A stretch of 64,000 nucleotides of DNA, taken from NCBI RefSeq assembly GCF_029227855.1, contig NZ_CP074356.1; one strand, 5' to 3'. The DNA is from Escherichia coli. GTDB lineage: Bacteria; Pseudomonadota; Gammaproteobacteria; Enterobacterales; Enterobacteriaceae. How positions within the stretch are numbered: the first letter of the stretch is position 1; the number at the start of each line of letters is the position of its first letter. The notes under the pieces are model-generated. The model was not told the origin of the DNA. It saw only the letters and a program-made list of their open reading frames with translations, and did no database searches. Shown piece by piece: positions 1,806 to 14,884 of this stretch. The position numbers and the translations under genes are program-made.

Positions 1806-2210
1806 ATCTACCCTGCTTGTACCATTATGTTATACACCTCTTCAGGAGTATTCATAAAATAAGACAAATGTAAAGAACTGTATTGTTTTGTATAATGCAA
1901 TGGTGACTAATCGCCAATGAATATAAGCACCATCATTTCTCCCTATTTTTATATTAAAAGTGACAACGATTTACAGGGTGATGCTGAGCTGACAATCACA
2001 GGTTTCCTTATCGGTTTTTGCATCGCACAACTAAAGCAATAAACTAGCTCCCGTCATCGGCGAATATGAATTAATTAGCCGGGCTCATAGCTGCATTCGC
2101 GTTTTAAGAATAATCCTCCTGCTCTCACCGACTATGCTTAACGTTTAAAAAAGCATCAGCACTCTCGCAACGCACTCTTATTTTCCCCTTTAGAATACCG
2201 GAGGCCTGGT

Positions 2211-6057: not shown

Positions 6058-7014
6058 ATGTCATACTCGCTTTTTGACAAAGACGAGCACTGGCATAAGC
6101 CAGAGCAGGCGTTTCTCACCGATGACCACCGGACCATTCTGCGCTTCGCCGTAGAGGCGCTAATGTCCGGTAAAGGAGCGGTGCTGGTGACGCTGGTGGA
6201 GATACGCGGCGGCGCGGCGCGCCCGCTCGGGGCGCAGATGGTGGTGCGCGAAGATGGTCGTTACTGCGGTTTTGTCTCTGGCGGCTGCGTGGAGGCCGCT
6301 GCCGCTTTTGAAGCGCTGGAGATGATGGGCTCAGGCCGCGATCGCGAAATTCGCTATGGTGAAGGTTCGCCGTGGTTTGACATCGTTCTGCCCTGCGGCG
6401 GTGGGATCACGCTGACGCTCCATAAACTACGCTCGGCACAGCCTCTGCTCGCCGTGCTGAACCGCCTGGAACAGAGAAAACCGGCGGGTCTGCGCTACGA
6501 TCCGCAAGCTCAATCGCTGGTGTGCCTGCCCACGCAAACCCGGACGGGCTGGAATCTCAATGGCTTTGAGGTGGGGTTCAGACCATGCGTCAGTCTGATG
6601 ATTTACGGACGTTCTCTTGAGGCGCAGGCAACCGCGAGTCTTGCAGCAGCCACAGGCTATGACAGCCATATCTTCGATCTTTTTCCGGCCTCAGCCAGCG
6701 CTCAGATCGATACCGATACGGCGGTCATTTTGCTGTGCCATGATCTCAACCGGGAGCTGCCAGTGTTGCAGGCCGCGCGAGAGGCAAAACCCTTTTATCT
6801 CGGCGCATTGGGCAGCTATCGAACCCACACTTTACGTCTGCAAAAGCTCCACGAGCTGGGATGGTCCAGGGAGGAGACAGCGCAAATCCGGGCACCCGTC
6901 GGGATATTCCCCAAAGCCCGGGATGCGCATACTCTGGCACTCTCCGTGCTGGCAGAAGTCGCCTCTGTACGTCTCCATCAGGAGGAGGATTCATGCCTGC
7001 CCCCGTCGTCCTGA
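6058..7014 (+). CDS. paoD: Molybdenum cofactor insertion chaperone PaoD (XdhC family)
   Basis: 318 aa XdhC/CoxI-like protein directly after paoC. Confidence 0.85.
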   Translation: MSYSLFDKDEHWHKPEQAFLTDDHRTILRFAVEALMSGKGAVLVTLVEIRGGAARPLGAQMVVREDGRYCGFVSGGCVEAAAAFEALEMMGSGRDREIRYGEGSPWFDIVLPCGGGITLTLHKLRSAQPLLAVLNRLEQRKPAGLRYDPQAQSLVCLPTQTRTGWNLNGFEVGFRPCVSLMIYGRSLEAQATASLAAATGYDSHIFDLFPASASAQIDTDTAVILLCHDLNRELPVLQAAREAKPFYLGALGSYRTHTLRLQKLHELGWSREETAQIRAPVGIFPKARDAHTLALSVLAEVASVRLHQEEDSCLPPSS

Positions 7015-7094
7015 TCCTTGCGGCCGGGCGTGGAGAGCGCTTTCTCGCCTCCGGGGGAAATACCCATAAATTAAGAGAAAAATCTGCAGTAGCC
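7005..7094 (+). pseudogene. 5' remnant of a MobA/MocA-like nucleotidyltransferase gene (about 28 codons), coupled to the paoD stop
   Basis: ATG overlapping the paoD end encodes MPAPVVLILAAGRGERFLASGGNTHKL (ILAAGxGxR NTP-transferase motif); similarity then stops and the frame runs into the 3' end of the opposite-strand transporter gene. Confidence 0.4.
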
Positions 7095-7193
7095 GTTTTA
7101 GAAAATCACCTAAATCGTTTAAAAGAGCACCCAACCCATAGTGGGCGCTCATCGCCTTGTGTAACTTATTCAGCAACGCGCGCCCTCGCCGGA

Positions 7194-8387
7194 CTAAAGC
7201 GCACCGGCCTTCTGGCGTGCGGTAACAAAGGTCAGTACGCCAGCGCAAAGGAGCAGCACGCTACTCATAGCAAACGTGCTCTGCCAGCCAAGGCGGTCAA
7301 ATACGATGCCTCCTGCTGTTGATCCAAGGGCGATGGAGAGCTGAATCACCGCGACCATGAGCCCGCCTCCGGCTTCGGCGTTGTCAGGCAACGTACGCGC
7401 AATCCATGTCCACCATCCGGTTGGCGCGGCGGTGGCCAGCATGCCCCAGAGTCCTAACAGCAGCGAGACCGTCCAGACGTGATGCCCGGTCAGCATCAGA
7501 CCGATAGCAATGACGGCCATCAGTCCGGGTATGGCCATCAGCGTGGGGTAGAATTTTCTGTTGAGAAATGCCGAAACAACCAGCGTGCCAATAAAACCGG
7601 CCACGCCGATAATCAGCAAAATCAACGACAAGCCTAAGGAATTAACCCGTGTCACCGACTCCAGAAACGGGCGCACATAGGTGAATAGTGCAAACTGCCC
7701 CATGAAAAACAGGCAGCAGGCTATCATGCCGACCACAACCATGCGGCGGCTAAATAAGCGGAATACCGCGCCACATGAAGTGTGGCTTTTATTCGCATCC
7801 ATGCTTGGCAGGCTGATGCACTGCCAGATAAAGGCGACAACCGCGATGGGCACCAGGCACAAGAAAGCGCCTCGCCATCCGACCGTAGCCCCCAGATAGC
7901 TTCCCAGCGGTGCGGCCACGACCGTCGCCAGCGCATTACCGGCGTTGAAAATTGCCAGCGCACGCGTGACCTGATGCTGCGGCACCAGACGAATCGCCGT
8001 TGCCGCTGACATCGACCAGAATCCGCCAATAGCCACACCAATCATCGCACGACCGACCATATACATCAGATAACTGGAAGCCAGCGCAATAATAAGCCCC
8101 GATACGGCCATCAGAACCGTCATCCCCAGCAGCAGGAACTTACGATTCATCTTTCCAGCTAGCGTTGAAAGCGTCAGGCTGGTCAGAACCGCCAGCGCGC
8201 CGGAGATAGCAATCCCCTGCCCTGCCAGCCCCTCCGTCACGCCTAAATCGCGGGTAATCGGCGTGAGCAGGCTGACGGGCATAAATTCAGAAGCAATCAG
8301 CACAAACACGCACAGGGTCATGGCAAAAATACCGCCCCAGTATGCGCGCTGATGATGAGGTGATAGTGTTTGGCTTAGTGTCGACAT
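7194..8387 (-). CDS. Major facilitator superfamily transporter (12 predicted TM helices)
   Basis: 397 aa, hydrophobic throughout with MFS-like glycine-rich loops. Confidence 0.7.
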   Translation of the reverse strand: MSTLSQTLSPHHQRAYWGGIFAMTLCVFVLIASEFMPVSLLTPITRDLGVTEGLAGQGIAISGALAVLTSLTLSTLAGKMNRKFLLLGMTVLMAVSGLIIALASSYLMYMVGRAMIGVAIGGFWSMSAATAIRLVPQHQVTRALAIFNAGNALATVVAAPLGSYLGATVGWRGAFLCLVPIAVVAFIWQCISLPSMDANKSHTSCGAVFRLFSRRMVVVGMIACCLFFMGQFALFTYVRPFLESVTRVNSLGLSLILLIIGVAGFIGTLVVSAFLNRKFYPTLMAIPGLMAVIAIGLMLTGHHVWTVSLLLGLWGMLATAAPTGWWTWIARTLPDNAEAGGGLMVAVIQLSIALGSTAGGIVFDRLGWQSTFAMSSVLLLCAGVLTFVTARQKAGAL

Positions 8388-8462
8388 AGTGAAATTTCAC
8401 AAAGATCAGGATAAAAGCCACCAGCCTATGGCCGGTGGCTTTGCATCAATTCAGGAGAGGTT

Positions 8463-9620
8463 TTATTTCAGTTTGGTCTGGAAAAATTGTTCGAACTTCG
8501 CGAAAGGTATTTTTCCGGCCACGTTATCGTACAGGTCCACGTGATTTGCCCCTGGTACCACCACCAACTCTTTGTCTTTACTGCCAACCGCCTTGTAAGC
8601 ATCTTCAGCAAAATAGCGTGAATGTGCTTTCTCACCGGTCACAATCAGCGTCGGAATGGTGATTTCACTGGCGTAGCTCAACAGCGGCATATTCATAAAT
8701 GACAGCGGCATCGTTGCCGTCCACGCCCCGGTAGAGTTAACGGAACGTTCGTGGAAGCCGCGCGGCATGCGATAGTAGTCAAAGAACTCTTTCAGTACCG
8801 GATGAGGATTTGCCGGCAGCGTTTCTGGCAGAATGCGCTCGCCCGCACTGACCTTGCCGTTGCTGTCGACATTAATATCATGACCACCGTGAGCGAACGT
8901 TCCGCTCTGCGCATCCTTCCAGCGCTGTTCATTCAGATATTGCAGAACAGCACGACGGTCGGCGGTAGAATAACGGTCTTTGCCATCCCCCACACCATGG
9001 CCCATCGCCCGGCTCATGTCATACATCACGCTGGTAGCTACCGCTTTAACGCGGGTATCCATCGCCGCGTCGTTCAGCGCCATGCCGCCCCAGCCACAAA
9101 TACCGAGCAGCCCGATACGGTTGCGATCTACCTCTTTTTGCAGCCCTAAGAAATCCACTGCCGCGCTGAAATCTTCAGTGTTGATATCCGGTGAGGCGAC
9201 GTTTCGCGGATAGCCGCCGCTTTCCCCGGTGTAAGAAGGATCGAACGCCAGGGTAACAAACCCTCGTTCCGCCAGCGTCTGCGCATACAGGCCGCTGGAT
9301 TGCTCTTTCACCGCGCCAAATGACCCACTGACCGCAATCGCCGCCAGCTTGCGATCGCCACGGTCTTTAGGCAGGTAAAGATCGCCCACTAAGGTGATGC
9401 CATATCGGTTCGGGAACGAGACTTTACGGTGATCGACTTTCTGGCTCTCGGCGAACGTTTTATCCCATTTATCTGTCATGGACACAGGGGCATTAGGATT
9501 GGTTGAATCAGCATAACTCATTGTCGTGACTCCACTTAATGATGCGAAAAGCAGCATGGTCGGCATCGCGGTTTTTAGCGTGCGGGTGAAGGCTTTCATA
9601 AAAATCCCCATAAAAAACAA
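8463..9620 (-). CDS. Secreted alpha/beta-fold hydrolase; alternative start at 9599 (MKAF...)
   Basis: 385 aa; N-terminal signal peptide; nucleophile-elbow-like motif GICGWGG; upstream of the MFS gene on the same strand. Confidence 0.55.
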   Translation of the reverse strand: MFFMGIFMKAFTRTLKTAMPTMLLFASLSGVTTMSYADSTNPNAPVSMTDKWDKTFAESQKVDHRKVSFPNRYGITLVGDLYLPKDRGDRKLAAIAVSGSFGAVKEQSSGLYAQTLAERGFVTLAFDPSYTGESGGYPRNVASPDINTEDFSAAVDFLGLQKEVDRNRIGLLGICGWGGMALNDAAMDTRVKAVATSVMYDMSRAMGHGVGDGKDRYSTADRRAVLQYLNEQRWKDAQSGTFAHGGHDINVDSNGKVSAGERILPETLPANPHPVLKEFFDYYRMPRGFHERSVNSTGAWTATMPLSFMNMPLLSYASEITIPTLIVTGEKAHSRYFAEDAYKAVGSKDKELVVVPGANHVDLYDNVAGKIPFAKFEQFFQTKLK

Positions 9621-9785
9621 CAGAGAGATACAGGTTTCCGACGGACAACGCTGCGGTGCTTTACTTTGATGGGGTCATTATAGTGAGCAGAATTAGTGCT
9701 GATTAGGGGGCGATTAATGCTAAGATTAATACCATATTGTTATAAATTAATGTGGAGATTGCCGGCATGAAGGGGGGATGTTTCA

Positions 9786-10670
9786 ATGGCGAAAAGGGAG
9801 AACTACAACGAGCTGTACCTGTTTATGCAGGTGGTGCGGGAAGGCAGCTTTACCGCAGCGGCTCAGCGGCTGGGTCTTGCTCAGTCAGGAGTCAGCCGTT
9901 CTGTTCGCGAGCTTGAAGAAAGGCTGGGTGTCCAGCTGCTAGTGCGCACCACGCGTAAACTGTCGCTGACACAAGCAGGCGAGCAGCTCTACCAGAAGAC
10001 GGCATCTGGATTTGAAATGTTAGATCTTGGGCTTGCCACGCTGGCGCATTATCGAGAGACGCCCTCCGGCACGGTGCGTATCAATGCCAGCCAGCACGCG
10101 ATTGATAAATGCCTGCTGCCAAAGCTGGCGGTATTTAAACAGAGATATCCTGATATCCGGCTTGAACTGATAAATGAGAGCCGGTTCGTCGATATCATCG
10201 AGGAAAGATTCGATGCAGGTGTCCGCCTGGGGCCTGAAGTCGGCCAGGGTATGGTCGCGGTACGCATCACGCCCGATATGGAGATGGCAATTGTGGGGAC
10301 TCCGGAACATTTTCGTCGCTATGGTTTTCCGCAAACCCCGGCGGATTTAAAGGCGCATCCCTGTATCGCCTATCAGTTTGCCGACGGCAGCGTATACCAG
10401 TGGGAACTCAATCAGGATGATAAAAAAATCACTCATCGCCCTGAAGGGCAATGGGCCCTATCCGACAGCTATATGGAAGCAGAAGCCGCCCGGCTGGGCC
10501 TCGGATTGGCCTATGTTCCTGTTGAACTGGTCGCGGATGATTTAGAACACGGTAAGCTTATCAGGGTGTTGCAGCGTTACAGCCTGCGAATGGAGGGATT
10601 GTTTCTCTATTACCCTCATCGCAACGTCTCCCCCGCCCTGCGGATGGTCATTGATACATTGAAAATCTGA
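9786..10670 (+). CDS. LysR-family transcriptional regulator
   Basis: 294 aa; N-terminal HTH (FTAAAQRLGLAQSGVSRSVRELEERLGVQLL); divergent from the hydrolase-MFS pair. Confidence 0.85.
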   Translation: MAKRENYNELYLFMQVVREGSFTAAAQRLGLAQSGVSRSVRELEERLGVQLLVRTTRKLSLTQAGEQLYQKTASGFEMLDLGLATLAHYRETPSGTVRINASQHAIDKCLLPKLAVFKQRYPDIRLELINESRFVDIIEERFDAGVRLGPEVGQGMVAVRITPDMEMAIVGTPEHFRRYGFPQTPADLKAHPCIAYQFADGSVYQWELNQDDKKITHRPEGQWALSDSYMEAEAARLGLGLAYVPVELVADDLEHGKLIRVLQRYSLRMEGLFLYYPHRNVSPALRMVIDTLKI

Positions 10671-11103
10671 ACGTTAACAACGACCGACTCTTCACTGTGC
10701 AAAATTGTGTCAGGTAGTCCCTCTGCGTTCAATTCCAGGGTCTGCTTTGAGCGAGAAAGAGGGGACTATCCAGCAATGGAGATCACCCAAAAGAAAAAAC
10801 CACCTGGCTCCCTCGACAACCTTCATCCGGGCATTTAGCCTCAATCAACATTTTTATATCTGTCAGGTTACTTCATTATGAAAACTGATCATCATCGTTG
10901 TTTTTGTTGCAATAGTAGAATACGCGTATTTATTCCTCCATCTCTATTAATAACGGCAATAAACTGTTCACTTCACTGATATTTAAAATATGTATCCTTT
11001 TCAAGCTGTTCAGCGGCGTAAGAAAAAGTATTAATTATGAATTCGATGATTTAACCATATCTGTCTGATTGGTAATCATCCGTGATTAATGCTGGTCTAT
11101 TGA

Positions 11104-12024
11104 TTACGCCAGAACCCTCTCTAGCTTATTCACCGCCGCCACATACTTCGCCGGATTTTTATCTTTAAGCACCGCCAGATTGCGTTGCTTCCAGCGAATA
11201 GCCGGAAGATGCTGAATTTCAGGATAGCGATACCGCGACCAGTCAGGGCTGTTTTGCTTAAAACTGAGCAAGAACTCGCGATCCAGATCCGTAAGATGTG
11301 ACTTCAACGCCTGCGGCAGCAAAGTCGTTACTGACAGAAGCGATTCCAGCGACGTTTCCTGTTGCGTCATCCCTGAAAATTCCTGCGCGTACAACGTGGC
11401 GATCCGCTCTGTATCCCAGTTTGGAGCCAGCAACTCGGCGATGGGGCGGGGATGGCCTGCCAGATAACAAAGAAAACCGTCAAAGATCTCCCGCATCAGT
11501 CCCGGTTTCTCCAGCATATTCAGCACATCAAACAGATCGCGCGGGTGCTGACGATCAAGCGCAGCGCAGATTTTACCGCCATAAAGATCCGCCAGCGAGA
11601 CGACACTCATGGTGGTGAAGCCATACTCCATTTCCACACGTTCGCACACAGGCATTTCTGCCGGAGGCAACAACAGCCCGCGCCAGACCGGGCTAACCTC
11701 GATCTTAATCTTTGCATCAGCGGTATTCACAATGATGCGCTTTTCATCCGCTTTATTTTCCTGCCGAATCGCGGTGATCCCCGGTCTGCCGTTCAGCGAT
11801 GCAGTAATCCTCTTCAAAGCGTCGTTGATAGCCGCCAAATCAGTATCGCGATCCGCAAAGCTCTTGTACGCCAGATCAATATCCACCGACAGACGGGGAA
11901 AATCCTGCACAAACAAATTGATTGCGGTGCCGCCTTTCAACGCGAAACAGGACTCCTTCGCCACATACGGCAGAGCGGCCATCAACAGTTTGACCTGCCG
12001 GGCATAGCTATCACGCAGATCCAT
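11104..12024 (-). CDS. abiEii: AbiEii-type nucleotidyltransferase toxin (DUF1814 family)
   Basis: 306 aa; NTase motif GGTAINLF...RLSVDIDL; 14-nt overlap with upstream partner. Confidence 0.7.
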   Translation of the reverse strand: MDLRDSYARQVKLLMAALPYVAKESCFALKGGTAINLFVQDFPRLSVDIDLAYKSFADRDTDLAAINDALKRITASLNGRPGITAIRQENKADEKRIIVNTADAKIKIEVSPVWRGLLLPPAEMPVCERVEMEYGFTTMSVVSLADLYGGKICAALDRQHPRDLFDVLNMLEKPGLMREIFDGFLCYLAGHPRPIAELLAPNWDTERIATLYAQEFSGMTQQETSLESLLSVTTLLPQALKSHLTDLDREFLLSFKQNSPDWSRYRYPEIQHLPAIRWKQRNLAVLKDKNPAKYVAAVNKLERVLA

Positions 12025-12814
12025 CTTCGACTCCTTCCGGTTTAAATGCGCGTGGAACAGTAATTTGATAATCCGGCTCCAGCCAGCCGCCGGGTATGAT
12101 TTGCCGCTTTCCCGTACCTGTTTCTATACCGCTTTGATCAATATACTGAAAATAAGGGTGTCCATTACGCCGGGCAAGGTAAAGCATCACCCGGTTGGTT
12201 TTAACCGAATGGCTGGCGCGAAGCAGTGCCTGCAATTTGCGTGGGCTGAGAAGATTCAACCCCTGAAACAGAGCATCGGCATGTTCGAACGAGATTAACG
12301 AAGGAACGCCGCAGGCGATCTCATACGCGGCCAGTTCCGGAACACTGCCTGCTAACTGGCGGTCGCCAATTTTCAGTTCCGTAGTAAATGGCGTTACATC
12401 AGCGGTAAGGCCTGACGTATACAGCGTGACAAACGTTGCGGATTGTTCAAAGGCAGAAAACCATCCCGGCAGTTTGACGTAAGCCGGAAGCGCGAGCCAG
12501 ACCTGCGGCTTACCCTGTTCGGTATAGTGCGCATGACCCTGAAGCGCAAGGCTGGTTAGCCCCGCCACCCGAACAGGCTTTTCCCACTGCGATTGCAGGC
12601 AGTAAACCGCATCCACCCAATCCGGTTCACGACCCGTCCGGCAGTATACGCCGTGAGCGATCCGCCTGAGCCAGCCATTCTTCACATAGAGATAAGAGAG
12701 CTTACGATCTATGCCGTTGCGGGTAAGCCATGACTGGAGCAGCACCTGGCCGGGTAGCGTGTGCTGCATCAGCCAGTTTAGATAGTTTGGCAACTGTCGC
12801 CTCTGAATAGACAT
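12011..12814 (-). CDS. abiEi: AbiEi-type antitoxin / transcriptional regulator
   Basis: 267 aa; sits immediately upstream of and overlapping the NTase gene, the usual AbiE arrangement. Confidence 0.6.
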   Translation of the reverse strand: MSIQRRQLPNYLNWLMQHTLPGQVLLQSWLTRNGIDRKLSYLYVKNGWLRRIAHGVYCRTGREPDWVDAVYCLQSQWEKPVRVAGLTSLALQGHAHYTEQGKPQVWLALPAYVKLPGWFSAFEQSATFVTLYTSGLTADVTPFTTELKIGDRQLAGSVPELAAYEIACGVPSLISFEHADALFQGLNLLSPRKLQALLRASHSVKTNRVMLYLARRNGHPYFQYIDQSGIETGTGKRQIIPGGWLEPDYQITVPRAFKPEGVEDGSA

Positions 12815-13108: not shown

Positions 13109-14884
13109 ATGACATATCAGGCAATTTTCACTGGCTGGGATGATCTGACGATTGAAGACCTTCTGGTCGCTTACCGGAAAGCAAAAGCCGATAGCTTCTT
13201 TGAGAATACATTTCCTGTTGCTATCAAATTTGCCGAGTATGAGCAGGAATTACTTGAAAACCTGCAAAAACTCTTAGATCTTTTGCAGAGCGAAGATGGA
13301 TTCAGTAGCAATAAGAAGTTGATTGGCAAATTTCGTTTGTTACCGAAAAAATTAACCACAAAGAAAAAACATGAATCCCAAAATGGACACGTCCACTTTT
13401 CTAATCCTAAACGAGCAGCCGACCATTTATTTAATAATTTTGATCTGATACCAGAGTTTCGTATTATTGGTGACTTCCCGGTTGATAGTCACATTATCTC
13501 TGCACTATGGATTAACATGGTCGGGCATAAATTTGATGCCAGCTTAGATAACTGTTGCTATGGCGCGCGGCTAAAGCGTATTCGTAATGATGAATTATTT
13601 AGCGATGAGCAGGATAATCCATTCCATATCAGTGCCGTGGGTTCTTTTAGCCCCTACTTCCAGCCCTACCAAAAATGGCGTGGTGATGGCTTAAAAGCTA
13701 TACGTGACGAGTTGGAAAAAGATCGTGACATTATCGCCGCCTCACTGGATTTAAAAAGTTACTATCATTTTATTGATCCACTGGCTATAACCTCTGATGA
13801 TCTCTATAACACACTAAACATAAAACTGACTGAGGATGAAAAAGCGTTTACTGCACAGTTAGCAGTATTCTTAAAGCACTGGTCTGACGGCGCAGCGGCA
13901 TTTGGAAAGAAAATAGCGTACAAAACACCTGTTATTAATGGTGGTCTGGTCATTGGATTAACAGCCAGTCGGATCATTTCAAATATATTGCTACACCATT
14001 GGGATAAATTAGTCATTGAAAAACTATCACCAATTCACTACGGTCGTTATGTCGATGATATGTTCCTTGTAATACGCGATACAGGGACAATTACTAATAA
14101 TCACGAATTTATGTTATTGCTGCAAGATAGGCTTGGCAATGATTGCGTTTATTTGAAAAACGAGCAAAAACAAATATGGCAAATACAGCAGGGCGAGCAT
14201 TTCCAGGGTAAGACCACCATCCAGTTACAATCCGATAAGCAAAAACTTTTCGTGCTTCAAGGGAGGGCTGGAATAGACCTGCTCGACAGTATCGAAAAGG
14301 AGATCTACGAGCTTTCTAGTGAACACCGCTTGATGCCTTCACCGGATCAACTGGAACACTCCACCGCAGCTAAAGTCCTTTCCGCTGCCGGTAGTGTAGG
14401 TGAAAATGCCGATACTCTGCGCCGTGCGGATGGATTAACCATTCGTCGTTTGGGCTGGTCACTGCAATTACGCTACGTTGAAACACTGGCACGAGATCTG
14501 CCTCCAAGTGAATGGAAAGAACAGCGGGAAGAGTTTTATCAGTTTGCCTACAACCATATTCTTAGGGCTGATAATCTATTTGCACATTTTAGTTATCTGC
14601 CAAGGCTGCTTGGCTTTGCTATCAGTATGAATGAATGGCAGCACGCGGAAAAAATTGTACTTAAAGCTTACGAATCCATCAACCTGTTGGCATCGGTGAT
14701 TACTTCAGGTAAGGAAGTGAATATAAATGGTTGCAAAACTCGAGCAGTAAATGATCTTTGGCGCTGTATAAAAGGCACATTAAGCTGGCTATTTGTTGAT
14801 GCAGCGACACGATATTACAGTCCTGACAGATTATTTCTTGATAAACGTTCAAAGAAAGAAGAGTGCCTTGCGGATACATTTTAA
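13109..14884 (+). CDS. Reverse transcriptase (UG/Abi-type defence RT); likely the N-terminal part of an RT-nitrilase fusion interrupted at a T4 tract
   Basis: 591 aa; RT motifs in order: FRLLPKK (motif 1), LDLKSYYHFID (A), GGLVIGLTASRIISNIL (B'), YGRYVDDMFLV (C, YxDD); stop codon TAA begins inside TTTT at 14879-14882. Confidence 0.8.
   Translation: MTYQAIFTGWDDLTIEDLLVAYRKAKADSFFENTFPVAIKFAEYEQELLENLQKLLDLLQSEDGFSSNKKLIGKFRLLPKKLTTKKKHESQNGHVHFSNPKRAADHLFNNFDLIPEFRIIGDFPVDSHIISALWINMVGHKFDASLDNCCYGARLKRIRNDELFSDEQDNPFHISAVGSFSPYFQPYQKWRGDGLKAIRDELEKDRDIIAASLDLKSYYHFIDPLAITSDDLYNTLNIKLTEDEKAFTAQLAVFLKHWSDGAAAFGKKIAYKTPVINGGLVIGLTASRIISNILLHHWDKLVIEKLSPIHYGRYVDDMFLVIRDTGTITNNHEFMLLLQDRLGNDCVYLKNEQKQIWQIQQGEHFQGKTTIQLQSDKQKLFVLQGRAGIDLLDSIEKEIYELSSEHRLMPSPDQLEHSTAAKVLSAAGSVGENADTLRRADGLTIRRLGWSLQLRYVETLARDLPPSEWKEQREEFYQFAYNHILRADNLFAHFSYLPRLLGFAISMNEWQHAEKIVLKAYESINLLASVITSGKEVNINGCKTRAVNDLWRCIKGTLSWLFVDAATRYYSPDRLFLDKRSKKEECLADTF

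Follow-up and report, generated by a model that had tools for sequence, protein, structure and literature searches.

The DNA immediately downstream of paoD in the window (the 64,000-nucleotide stretch of the E. coli chromosome analyzed here, with the gene order ecp-ykgJ-yagU-paoABCD) very probably contains the non-functional 5' remnant of a MobA/MocA-like nucleotidyltransferase gene, formerly the fifth gene of the pao operon, which was most likely cut by a deletion of about 7 kb and whose loss is presumably tolerated via MocA. PaoABC makes use of the cytosine-dinucleotide molybdenum cofactor (MCD), which PaoD obtains from MocA (PMC3958847, PMC3909100), and the literature has the operon end with paoD (PMC3909100). 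On the reading proposed here, the four-gene paoABCD of E. coli is a truncated form of a five-gene operon kept by most other Enterobacterales, and it follows that the PaoD-MocA handover of MCD in E. coli depends on an unlinked paralogue, which took the place of a dedicated, operon-encoded enzyme. The stub, which carries no annotation, is an ordinary example of a decaying gene, and no prior description of it was found in the literature searched for yagP and paoD. The features of the region are listed in the table.

Features of the region 3' of paoD (window coordinates)
Feature	Position	Strand	Basis or remark
paoD, XdhC-family Moco insertion chaperone, last intact paoABCD gene	6058..7014	+	Pfam XdhC_CoxI and XdhC_C; RefSeq paoD in identical E. 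coli records
GGAGG Shine-Dalgarno sequence, 7 nt 5' of the stub ATG, within the paoD coding sequence	6981..6985	+	Sequence read directly
5' remnant of a MocA-like NTP_transf_3 gene probably once translationally coupled to paoD; 27 codons, MPAPVVLILAAGRGERFLASGGNTHKL	6993..7073	+	tblastn, HMM, DNA alignment
CATAA, left microhomology of the secondary 6.1-kb deletion (deletion absent from window)	7065..7069	+	K-12 diverges from window after 7069
Read-through of the stub frame, codons 28-109, over the spacer and antisense into the MFS 3' end	7074..7322	+	No similarity to intact homologues past codon 27
Possible last 5 codons and stop of an alpha/beta-hydrolase gene, GAG AAA AAT CTG CAG TAG (EKNLQ and stop)	7075..7092	+	Tentative; 16/21 nt match
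9-bp hairpin (7125-7150) then UUUU (7121-7124), likely intrinsic terminator of the convergent MFS gene	7121..7150	-	MFE fold of minus strand
MFS transporter, first gene of the MFS / alpha-beta hydrolase / LysR1 cassette	7194..8321	-	Pfam MFS_1; RefSeq annotation

The stub opens with an ATG at 6993-6995, located 19 nt 5' of the paoD stop codon (TGA, 7012-7014), such that the two frames overlap by 22 nt. An earlier note on this DNA had described a frame starting MPAPVVLILAAGRGERF, which is indeed present; the start had been placed at 7005 and the ATG across the paoD stop codon, but the true ATG lies upstream from both positions and the stop codon itself is not overlapped. Homology to intact genes breaks at 7073/7074, the last matching codon being number 27 (L, 7071-7073), which nearly agrees with the 28 or so codons over which similarity had originally been noticed. 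The remaining read-through, which brings the ORF to 109 aa in the window, is meaningless noise.

The evidence for common ancestry comes from protein and DNA comparisons. In a tblastn search of 80 paoD loci, the stub ORF was matched in pao loci over 26-27 residues, with 65-92% identity and E values down to 2e-10, always directly 3' of paoD. A profile HMM of 26 intact enterobacterial genes matched the stub with 37.3 bits (E 3.6e-9) at HMM positions 1-27, covering its glycine-rich N-terminal motif, and this was the sole match of the profile in a six-frame translation of the 64 kb. Twenty-five of the 27 residues are identical to those of three intact proteins of 184 aa (P0034, P0035 and P0038). 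At the DNA level, the stub is 88-93% identical to the closest intact genes (87.7% over 81 nt for that of a Pluralibacter MAG), and window positions 6215-7073 are 92.8% identical to a Salmonella contig (L088). The match is, thus, significant by both tblastn and HMM, and the original identification as a remnant of a MobA/MocA-like gene stands. Neither the stub nor its 109-aa ORF alone matched any Pfam or NCBIfam model at E <= 10, the PF12804 HMM included, because 27 residues are too few. This absence of a match would be expected if the likeness were a chance match, without shared ancestry, to the glycine-rich nucleotide-binding motif common in nucleotidyltransferases, but such a coincidence has a negligible probability given the 81 nt of DNA identity to intact gene starts in an identical syntenic position, continuous with the paoD homology, together with the HMM match, and it is refuted by the tblastn, DNA alignment and profile HMM results. 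The stub can be assigned to the PF12804 family only through orthology, since it has no family HMM match of its own, whereas its intact syntenic orthologues do; the glycine-rich nucleotide-binding motif LILAAGRGERF lies at the start of their domain, with orthologue residue 6 at PF12804 profile position 1. What remains in the window agrees with the definition of a gene remnant, in that relatives have the whole gene at this syntenic position and the window has one part of it without the rest: only 27 codons are homologous, and the full catalytic domain (about 160 residues) is gone.

Of 28 Enterobacterales pao loci, 26 carry an intact MobA-like NTP transferase gene immediately 3' of paoD, start/stop-coupled and on the same strand, so that the comparison with other Enterobacteriaceae proposed in the earlier note did recover a nucleotidyltransferase gene at this position, with a significant match to the stub. 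About 11 alphaproteobacterial loci also have an intact NTP-transferase gene directly 3' of an XdhC-family gene on the same strand. The intact genes encode 177-197 aa, counted from the aligned N-terminus, a few frames not having been traced to their own start codon. By gene calls, the intact gene of Enterobacter oligotrophicus (L085) shares 22 nt with paoD, as in the window; in the Pluralibacter MAG (L003), the ATG and TGA occupy positions equal to those of the window in the alignment, and the intact genes of both are preceded by the same arrangement of Shine-Dalgarno sequence and ATG.

The intact orthologues score 85-94 bits against PF12804 (NTP_transf_3; cutoff 27). Their best NCBIfam match is to MocA/YgfJ (TIGR03310), at 84.7 and 72.2 bits. 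Since scores of 72-85 bits fall far below the equivalog cutoff (186.45) and only the C-terminal two thirds align, the lost gene is, as judged from these profiles, a MocA-like paralogue belonging to a distinct paralogous subfamily rather than a MocA equivalog. MocA (YgfJ), the CTP:molybdopterin cytidylyltransferase of E. coli, belongs to the same Pfam family, and the orthologues resemble it in opening with the same kind of glycine-rich motif and in being linked to an MCD-dependent enzyme; they differ from it in remaining below the TIGR03310 cutoff, and the E. coli stub keeps only its 27 codons. Family membership, operon linkage to PaoABC (PMC3958847) and the name given to orthologues in some database records (molybdenum cofactor cytidylyltransferase) suggest that the lost enzyme would have been specific for CTP and would have transferred CMP to Mo-molybdopterin. 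A literature search for MocA and MobA specificity motifs found none; the motif of the stub family presumably resembles that of MocA (AAG) rather than that of MobA (AGG).

Pairs of xdhC and mocA genes are a known organization in other bacteria (PMC2997495). In Bacillus subtilis (pucA-pucB), Arthrobacter pAO1 (xdhC-mocA) and O. carboxidovorans, the gene for an XdhC-family chaperone is followed directly by a co-transcribed MocA homologue, beside a xanthine-oxidase-family enzyme (PMC2997495). The intact enterobacterial pairs of paoD and NTP-transferase genes have exactly this layout, whereas in E. coli the second member has been cut down to a stub.

The Salmonella contig provides an undeleted, colinear arrangement: paoD is followed by the intact gene, then by other genes over about 7.2 kb, and finally by the MFS and hydrolase genes, both on the minus strand. 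It matches the window in two blocks, 6215-7073 at 92.8% identity and 7206-9488 at 82.7%, and this arrangement makes a deletion of about 7 kb likely. The rest of the gene was found nowhere in E. coli: a blastn search with the Pluralibacter gene as the probe aligned no more than its first 81 nt with any of 5,426 complete E. coli genomes, and tblastn and the profile HMM revealed no second fragment within the 64-kb window. Weak tblastn matches at 12086-12235 (E 0.03-0.9), considered as the 3' part of a gene split by insertion, were rejected as chance, because the profile HMM misses them and they lie antisense to an AbiEi gene. The earlier note had proposed an ancestral paoABCD-mocA-like operon cut by a deletion or an insertion; the ancestral operon is supported by synteny, and, because the remainder is absent from E. 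coli and the Salmonella contig retains an undeleted arrangement, a deletion is the most likely cause and an insertion less likely. About 1,820 of the 5,426 genomes lack the paoD 3' end altogether.

The following course of events may be proposed. In the ancestor, the MocA-like gene would have occupied the fifth place in the pao operon, with its translation coupled to that of paoD, and its product would have made MCD for PaoABC. About 7 kb would then have been lost, in what we infer to have been a single deletion in situ, taking out codons 28 to about 184 along with downstream genes for a hydrolase, a two-component system, a cupin, a CMD protein, a flavodoxin-like protein and an alpha/beta-hydrolase, so that the 3' flank of the convergent MFS gene came to follow codon 27. 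E. coli would tolerate this loss because the unlinked MocA (YgfJ) presumably supplies MCD to PaoD. The Shine-Dalgarno sequence and ATG of the stub would have survived only because they lie inside paoD.

The two halves of the Salmonella contig differ in their identity to E. coli, and the MFS-hydrolase-LysR1 cassette, 82.7% identical on that contig, is also found at 91% identity in unrelated genomic contexts; the juxtaposition could, thus, stem from block transfer rather than from deletion in situ. The gene may then have been truncated at acquisition, through horizontal transfer or illegitimate recombination of a pao block with its right endpoint inside the mocA-like gene, beside an MFS-hydrolase-LysR cassette that was already present or was acquired separately. 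E. coli is homologous to the closest pao loci (those of Pluralibacter and E. oligotrophicus) from about 2026 to 7070-7073, with synteny lost on both sides, a second gene remnant (an MFS fragment, 1964-2032) lies upstream of paoA, and the presence of the cassette in unrelated contexts and the many genomes without the paoD 3' end point in the same direction. However, on the Salmonella contig, the intact gene is linked in cis to the same MFS-hydrolase block, which has an unchanged orientation, and the left end of the spacer resembles the 3' end of the gene neighbouring MFS in two contigs (L088 and L090), which fits the internal deletion of a larger block. Truncation at acquisition is an appreciable but distinctly less probable explanation than deletion.

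The right-hand endpoint of the deletion can be placed only tentatively, because the spacer has no clear homologue; none was found in Salmonella, in other related loci or in plasmids. The stub had been thought to join the 3' end of the MFS gene, but 120 nt (7074-7193; 48% GC) lie between the two, the MFS stop codon being at 7194-7196 on the minus strand. The segment 7075-7092 resembles the 3' end of an Abhydrolase_6 gene converging on MFS in L088 (DKDLQ and stop) and L090 (EKALQ and stop), and MAFFT aligns these sequences, although the resemblance is insignificant alone; this match would tentatively mark the right edge of the deletion. The spacer looks like a diverged MFS 3' flank with a terminator hairpin rather than a gene remnant. 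The fold z-score of the hairpin region is only -1.2, and a consensus terminator scan made no call there; promoter and terminator consensus scans and Rfam gave nothing at 6800-7400.

It is very unlikely that the stub has been co-opted, its Shine-Dalgarno sequence and ATG driving a small protein (109 aa here; a 136-aa YagP chimera in K-12 types) or a coupling ORF affecting paoD mRNA stability or antisense control of MFS. Eleven of 12 sampled E. coli sequences have an intact ATG preceded by a strong, ideally spaced GGAGG, and the plus strand has no called terminator between paoD and the MFS gene; but both signals lie within paoD, which explains their conservation. Past codon 27, the ORF is broken differently in different strains, the lesions among the 12 sequences being a stop at codon 36, a -1 frameshift and the insertion of one A (+1); the O157 stub carries a -1 frameshift, and the variants E15K, R16C and A19T also occur. 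The ORF has no homologues outside E. coli, no Pfam domain and no Rfam match. Variable columns account for 8 of 55 positions (14.5%) in the stub-only part versus 65 of 935 (7.0%) in paoD (Fisher p = 0.043), a marginal excess that would fit decay, based on only 12 sequences and 55 sites. The widespread in-frame fusion of K-12-type strains described below would favour co-option, and there is a slim chance that the stub is not inert and that ribosomes cross the junction, antisense into MFS here and, in K-12, into a YagP combining a MocA-like N-terminus with a LysR effector-binding domain, such that the product or its translation might link pao expression to neighbouring genes.

K-12-type strains have undergone a second deletion, of 6.1 kb, between CATAA repeats, which are found at both ends of the corresponding interval in O157, and the stub is fused in frame to a LysR fragment. 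The resulting yagP, annotated as a LysR-family pseudogene in K-12, has the same ATG as the stub and shares its first 26 codons, but continues into the C-terminal 110 residues of a LysR regulator, the gene for which O157 retains whole; the window, thus, represents the older, unfused arrangement. The LysR1 gene of the window was considered as the source of the fragment and rejected, as there was no blastn match; the source is a second LysR gene, intact in O157. The in-frame fusion is present in 2,680 genomes and forms a protein cluster with 502 members, and RefSeq annotates only the LysR part. The yagP of K-12 is, in fact, a chimera in which two pseudogene pieces unrelated to each other have been joined, and the 109-aa ORFs named 'LysR-type regulator' in some records are artefacts.

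The DNA from the 3' end of paoD toward the neighboring MFS transporter gene contains an unannotated but ordinary gene remnant (the stub): the first 27 codons of a MobA/MocA-like nucleotidyltransferase gene. The region belongs to the E. coli chromosome (several complete E. coli genomes match 6700-7500 at 100% identity), and RefSeq annotates identical E. coli records in the order ecpDE, ykgJ, yagU, paoA, paoB, paoC and paoD, after which come MFS transporter and alpha/beta hydrolase genes on the opposite strand and then a LysR regulator (LysR1); no feature is annotated in the interval from paoD to the MFS gene. The stub ATG precedes the paoD stop codon by 19 nt, so the two frames overlap by 22 nt. 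The earlier note rightly described a frame after paoD, with an ATG overlapping it, but gave the start 12 nt late, and the overlap is with the paoD frame rather than on the stop codon itself. Pfam and NCBIfam scans of the 109-codon ORF alone gave no match. In E. coli C10, a TCA to TAA change at the equivalent of 6990-6992, just 5' of the stub ATG, shortens paoD to 311 codons, so the last few PaoD residues appear to be dispensable or variable.

Features of the paoD region and related loci (window positions unless a locus is named)
Feature	Position	Strand	Details
MFS transporter remnant	1964-2032	+	yagU-paoA interval; 69 nt encoding NDLQGDAELTITGFLIGFCIAQL
paoD	6058-7014		Pfam XdhC_CoxI + XdhC_C
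GGAGG	6981-6985		Shine-Dalgarno in AGGAGGAGGA, upstream of the stub ATG
Stub ATG	6993-6995		
Stub	6993-7073		27 codons
ORF from stub ATG	6993-7322		109 codons; begins MPAPVVLILAAGRGERFLASGGNTHKLREK...
paoD stop codon	7012-7014		
CATAA, left copy	7065-7069		
Spacer	7074-7193		120 nt
LysR1/hydrolase/MFS cassette	7197-10766		
Partial ykgR copy	~10882-10950		ykgR also in L083 (O157) 13200-13268 and L084 3662-3763
AbiEii/AbiEi pair, HTH genes, dptF	11104-12793 and beyond		3' of LysR1; annotation of L001 (E. coli)
paoD of C10	L099 59-994		
yagP of K-12	L002 6294-6704		

The ORF was compared by tblastn with 80 loci carrying PaoD relatives, from species-representative genomes. Matches lay directly 3' of paoD, over 23-27 residues at 65-92% identity (E down to 2e-10), and nearly all stopped at residue 27 (...HKL), a few extending at much lower identity. 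The frame matched in 26 of these loci forms an uninterrupted gene with 177-197 aa, counted from the aligned N-terminus; among the genera concerned are Pluralibacter, Leclercia, Enterobacter, Silvania, Franconibacter, Siccibacter, Cedecea, Dryocola, Kosakonia, Citrobacter, Atlantibacter and Pseudocitrobacter. Such a gene also stands directly after the paoD homologue in about eleven alphaproteobacterial loci. The intact proteins score 85-94 bits against PF12804 (MobA-like NTP transferase), and among solved structures the nearest is that of a mycobacterial MobA/MocA-related protein. The stub ORF was the single window match, in six-frame translation, to a profile HMM of the 26 proteins (37.3 bits, E 3.6e-9). 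This match, and intact syntenic genes in 26 of the 28 Enterobacterales loci (the gene is absent only from two Erwinia loci), support the claim that a mocA-like remnant follows paoD. The closest intact proteins in a large protein collection (P0034, P0035 and P0038, from Enterobacter oligotrophicus, an endosymbiont record and one unnamed cluster) share 25 of the 27 N-terminal residues of the stub; P0032, from a Salmonella contig, is a further close relative, and none of the best 120 matches is Escherichia-named. The gene called in E. oligotrophicus overlaps paoD by 22 nt, like the stub.

The cofactor of PaoABC is molybdopterin cytosine dinucleotide (PMC3958847), which PaoD obtains from the unlinked cytidylyltransferase MocA (PMC3909100), and other bacteria are known to have operons in which an XdhC-type chaperone gene is paired with a mocA homologue (PMC2997495). 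Taken with family and linkage, this literature suggests that the lost gene most likely encoded a MocA-like enzyme dedicated to pao, which MocA made redundant. The best NCBIfam match of its intact orthologues is MocA/YgfJ (TIGR03310), but at 72-85 bits they fall below the equivalog cutoff of 186.

Window DNA tracks the intact genes through CAT AAA TTA (codons 25-27, to 7073) and diverges thereafter, in agreement with the loss of similarity previously placed at about 28 codons. The stub is 87.7% identical to the gene of a Pluralibacter MAG over 81 nt. The remaining ~150 codons were not found in the 64-kb window, and blastn (distant mode) of the Pluralibacter gene against 5,426 complete E. coli genomes recovered the first 81 nt only. 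It follows that the gene was lost by deletion or replacement and was not split by an insertion; the earlier proposal of a paoABCD-mocA-like operon cut by a deletion or insertion is supported for the operon, with a deletion as the likely cause. Judging from a related locus, the truncation probably arose by a deletion of ~7 kb. That locus, on a Salmonella enterica contig (L088/L089) belonging to an element that has integrase and TraI genes, combines a paoD truncated at its 5' end with an intact 184-aa gene, followed by ~7.2 kb of hydrolase, response regulator, histidine kinase, cupin, CMD, flavodoxin-like and Abhydrolase_6 genes, beyond which lie an MFS gene and an alpha/beta hydrolase gene on the opposite strand. 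Its left part matches 6215-7073 (92.8% identity) and its right part 7206-9488 (82.7%), colinearly and in the same orientation; a ~7-kb deletion from a locus of this kind would produce the E. coli arrangement. The spacer has a GC content of 48%, versus 59% for pao, and no clear homologue of it was found in the related loci or plasmids searched. Its first 18 nt are GAG AAA AAT CTG CAG TAG, and 16/21 nt match the end of the Abhydrolase_6 gene that, in L088 and in metagenomic contig L090, runs convergently toward the MFS gene; beyond this match lie a few more collinear patches. Because of this match, the right deletion endpoint is tentatively placed inside that gene, a few codons short of its stop. 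The minus strand of the spacer folds into a 9-bp hairpin with UUUU directly after it, plausibly the MFS terminator, though not called in a consensus terminator scan. Alternatively, the pao block may already have been truncated when E. coli took it up: relative to the closest pao loci, homology starts abruptly near 2026 and ends at 7070-7073, and the LysR1-hydrolase-MFS cassette is found in unrelated contexts at 91% identity, but this origin seems rather unlikely.

The paoD 3' end is present in ~3,600 of the 5,426 complete genomes, 912 with the window arrangement and 2,680 with that of K-12, where identity ends at 7069 and gives way to a C-terminal LysR fragment. This fragment does not match LysR1, which is excluded as its source; it comes from a second LysR gene (LysR2), intact in O157:H7 ~6 kb further on. 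CATAA stands at each end of the interval missing from K-12 types, which thus come from the window type by a microhomology-mediated 6.1-kb deletion. Every window-type strain sampled has the 7073/7074 junction, even those of a divergent allele group at ~96% identity, so the primary truncation is old within the species. The state of the stub fits an unselected fossil. Among 12 E. coli sequences, 14.5% of columns are variable in the part outside paoD, versus 7.0% in paoD alone (Fisher p = 0.043), with E15K, R16C and A19T variants; the O157 stub has a 1-nt deletion (ACCCAT to ACCAT) and a stop after 26 codons, and past codon 27 the frame is broken differently by strain (a stop at codon 36, or a +1 A insertion). 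The Shine-Dalgarno and ATG persist because both lie inside paoD, and no Rfam family or promoter-like site was found in 6800-7400. In K-12, yagP is an in-frame 136-aa ORF of 26 stub codons and 110 C-terminal LysR residues, of which RefSeq annotates the LysR part alone. It is highly improbable that this chimera, or translation initiated at the stub, has gained a role. Some database records call the spurious 109-aa ORF a 'transcriptional regulator LYSR-type', a label that appears to be carried over from yagP, with which the ORF has only the 26 stub codons in common.

A second gene remnant lies upstream of paoA: NDLQGDAELTITGFLIGFCIAQL is identical, at 23/23 residues, to residues 47-69 of a 398-aa MFS transporter (L085 2840-4036), intact just upstream of paoA in E. 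oligotrophicus and otherwise missing from E. coli, so the pao operon has stubs on both flanks. The three-gene cassette behaves as a shuffled module, being ~91% identical in metagenomic contigs L090 (6568-10126) and L092 (6562-10153), with wholly different flanks. In Frateuria defendens (L028 6001-10581), a PaoD-like gene (61% identity) adjoins homologues of the cassette genes (42-63%) in inverted order, and neither paoA nor paoC was detected upstream; the arrangement may reflect an old linkage or be coincidental. Pao-positive strains have a partial ykgR copy 3' of LysR1, and the pao-less strain wlxctx60 runs directly through fdeC, ykgR, a hypothetical gene, an SDR gene and LysR2, which suggests that recombination between ykgR copies may explain the loss of the ecp-pao block in about one third of E. 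coli genomes. Where this strain type has the AbiEii/AbiEi toxin-antitoxin pair, HTH genes and dptF (phosphorothioation-dependent restriction) after LysR1, O157 and K-12 have other genes, marking a variable defense-island spot.
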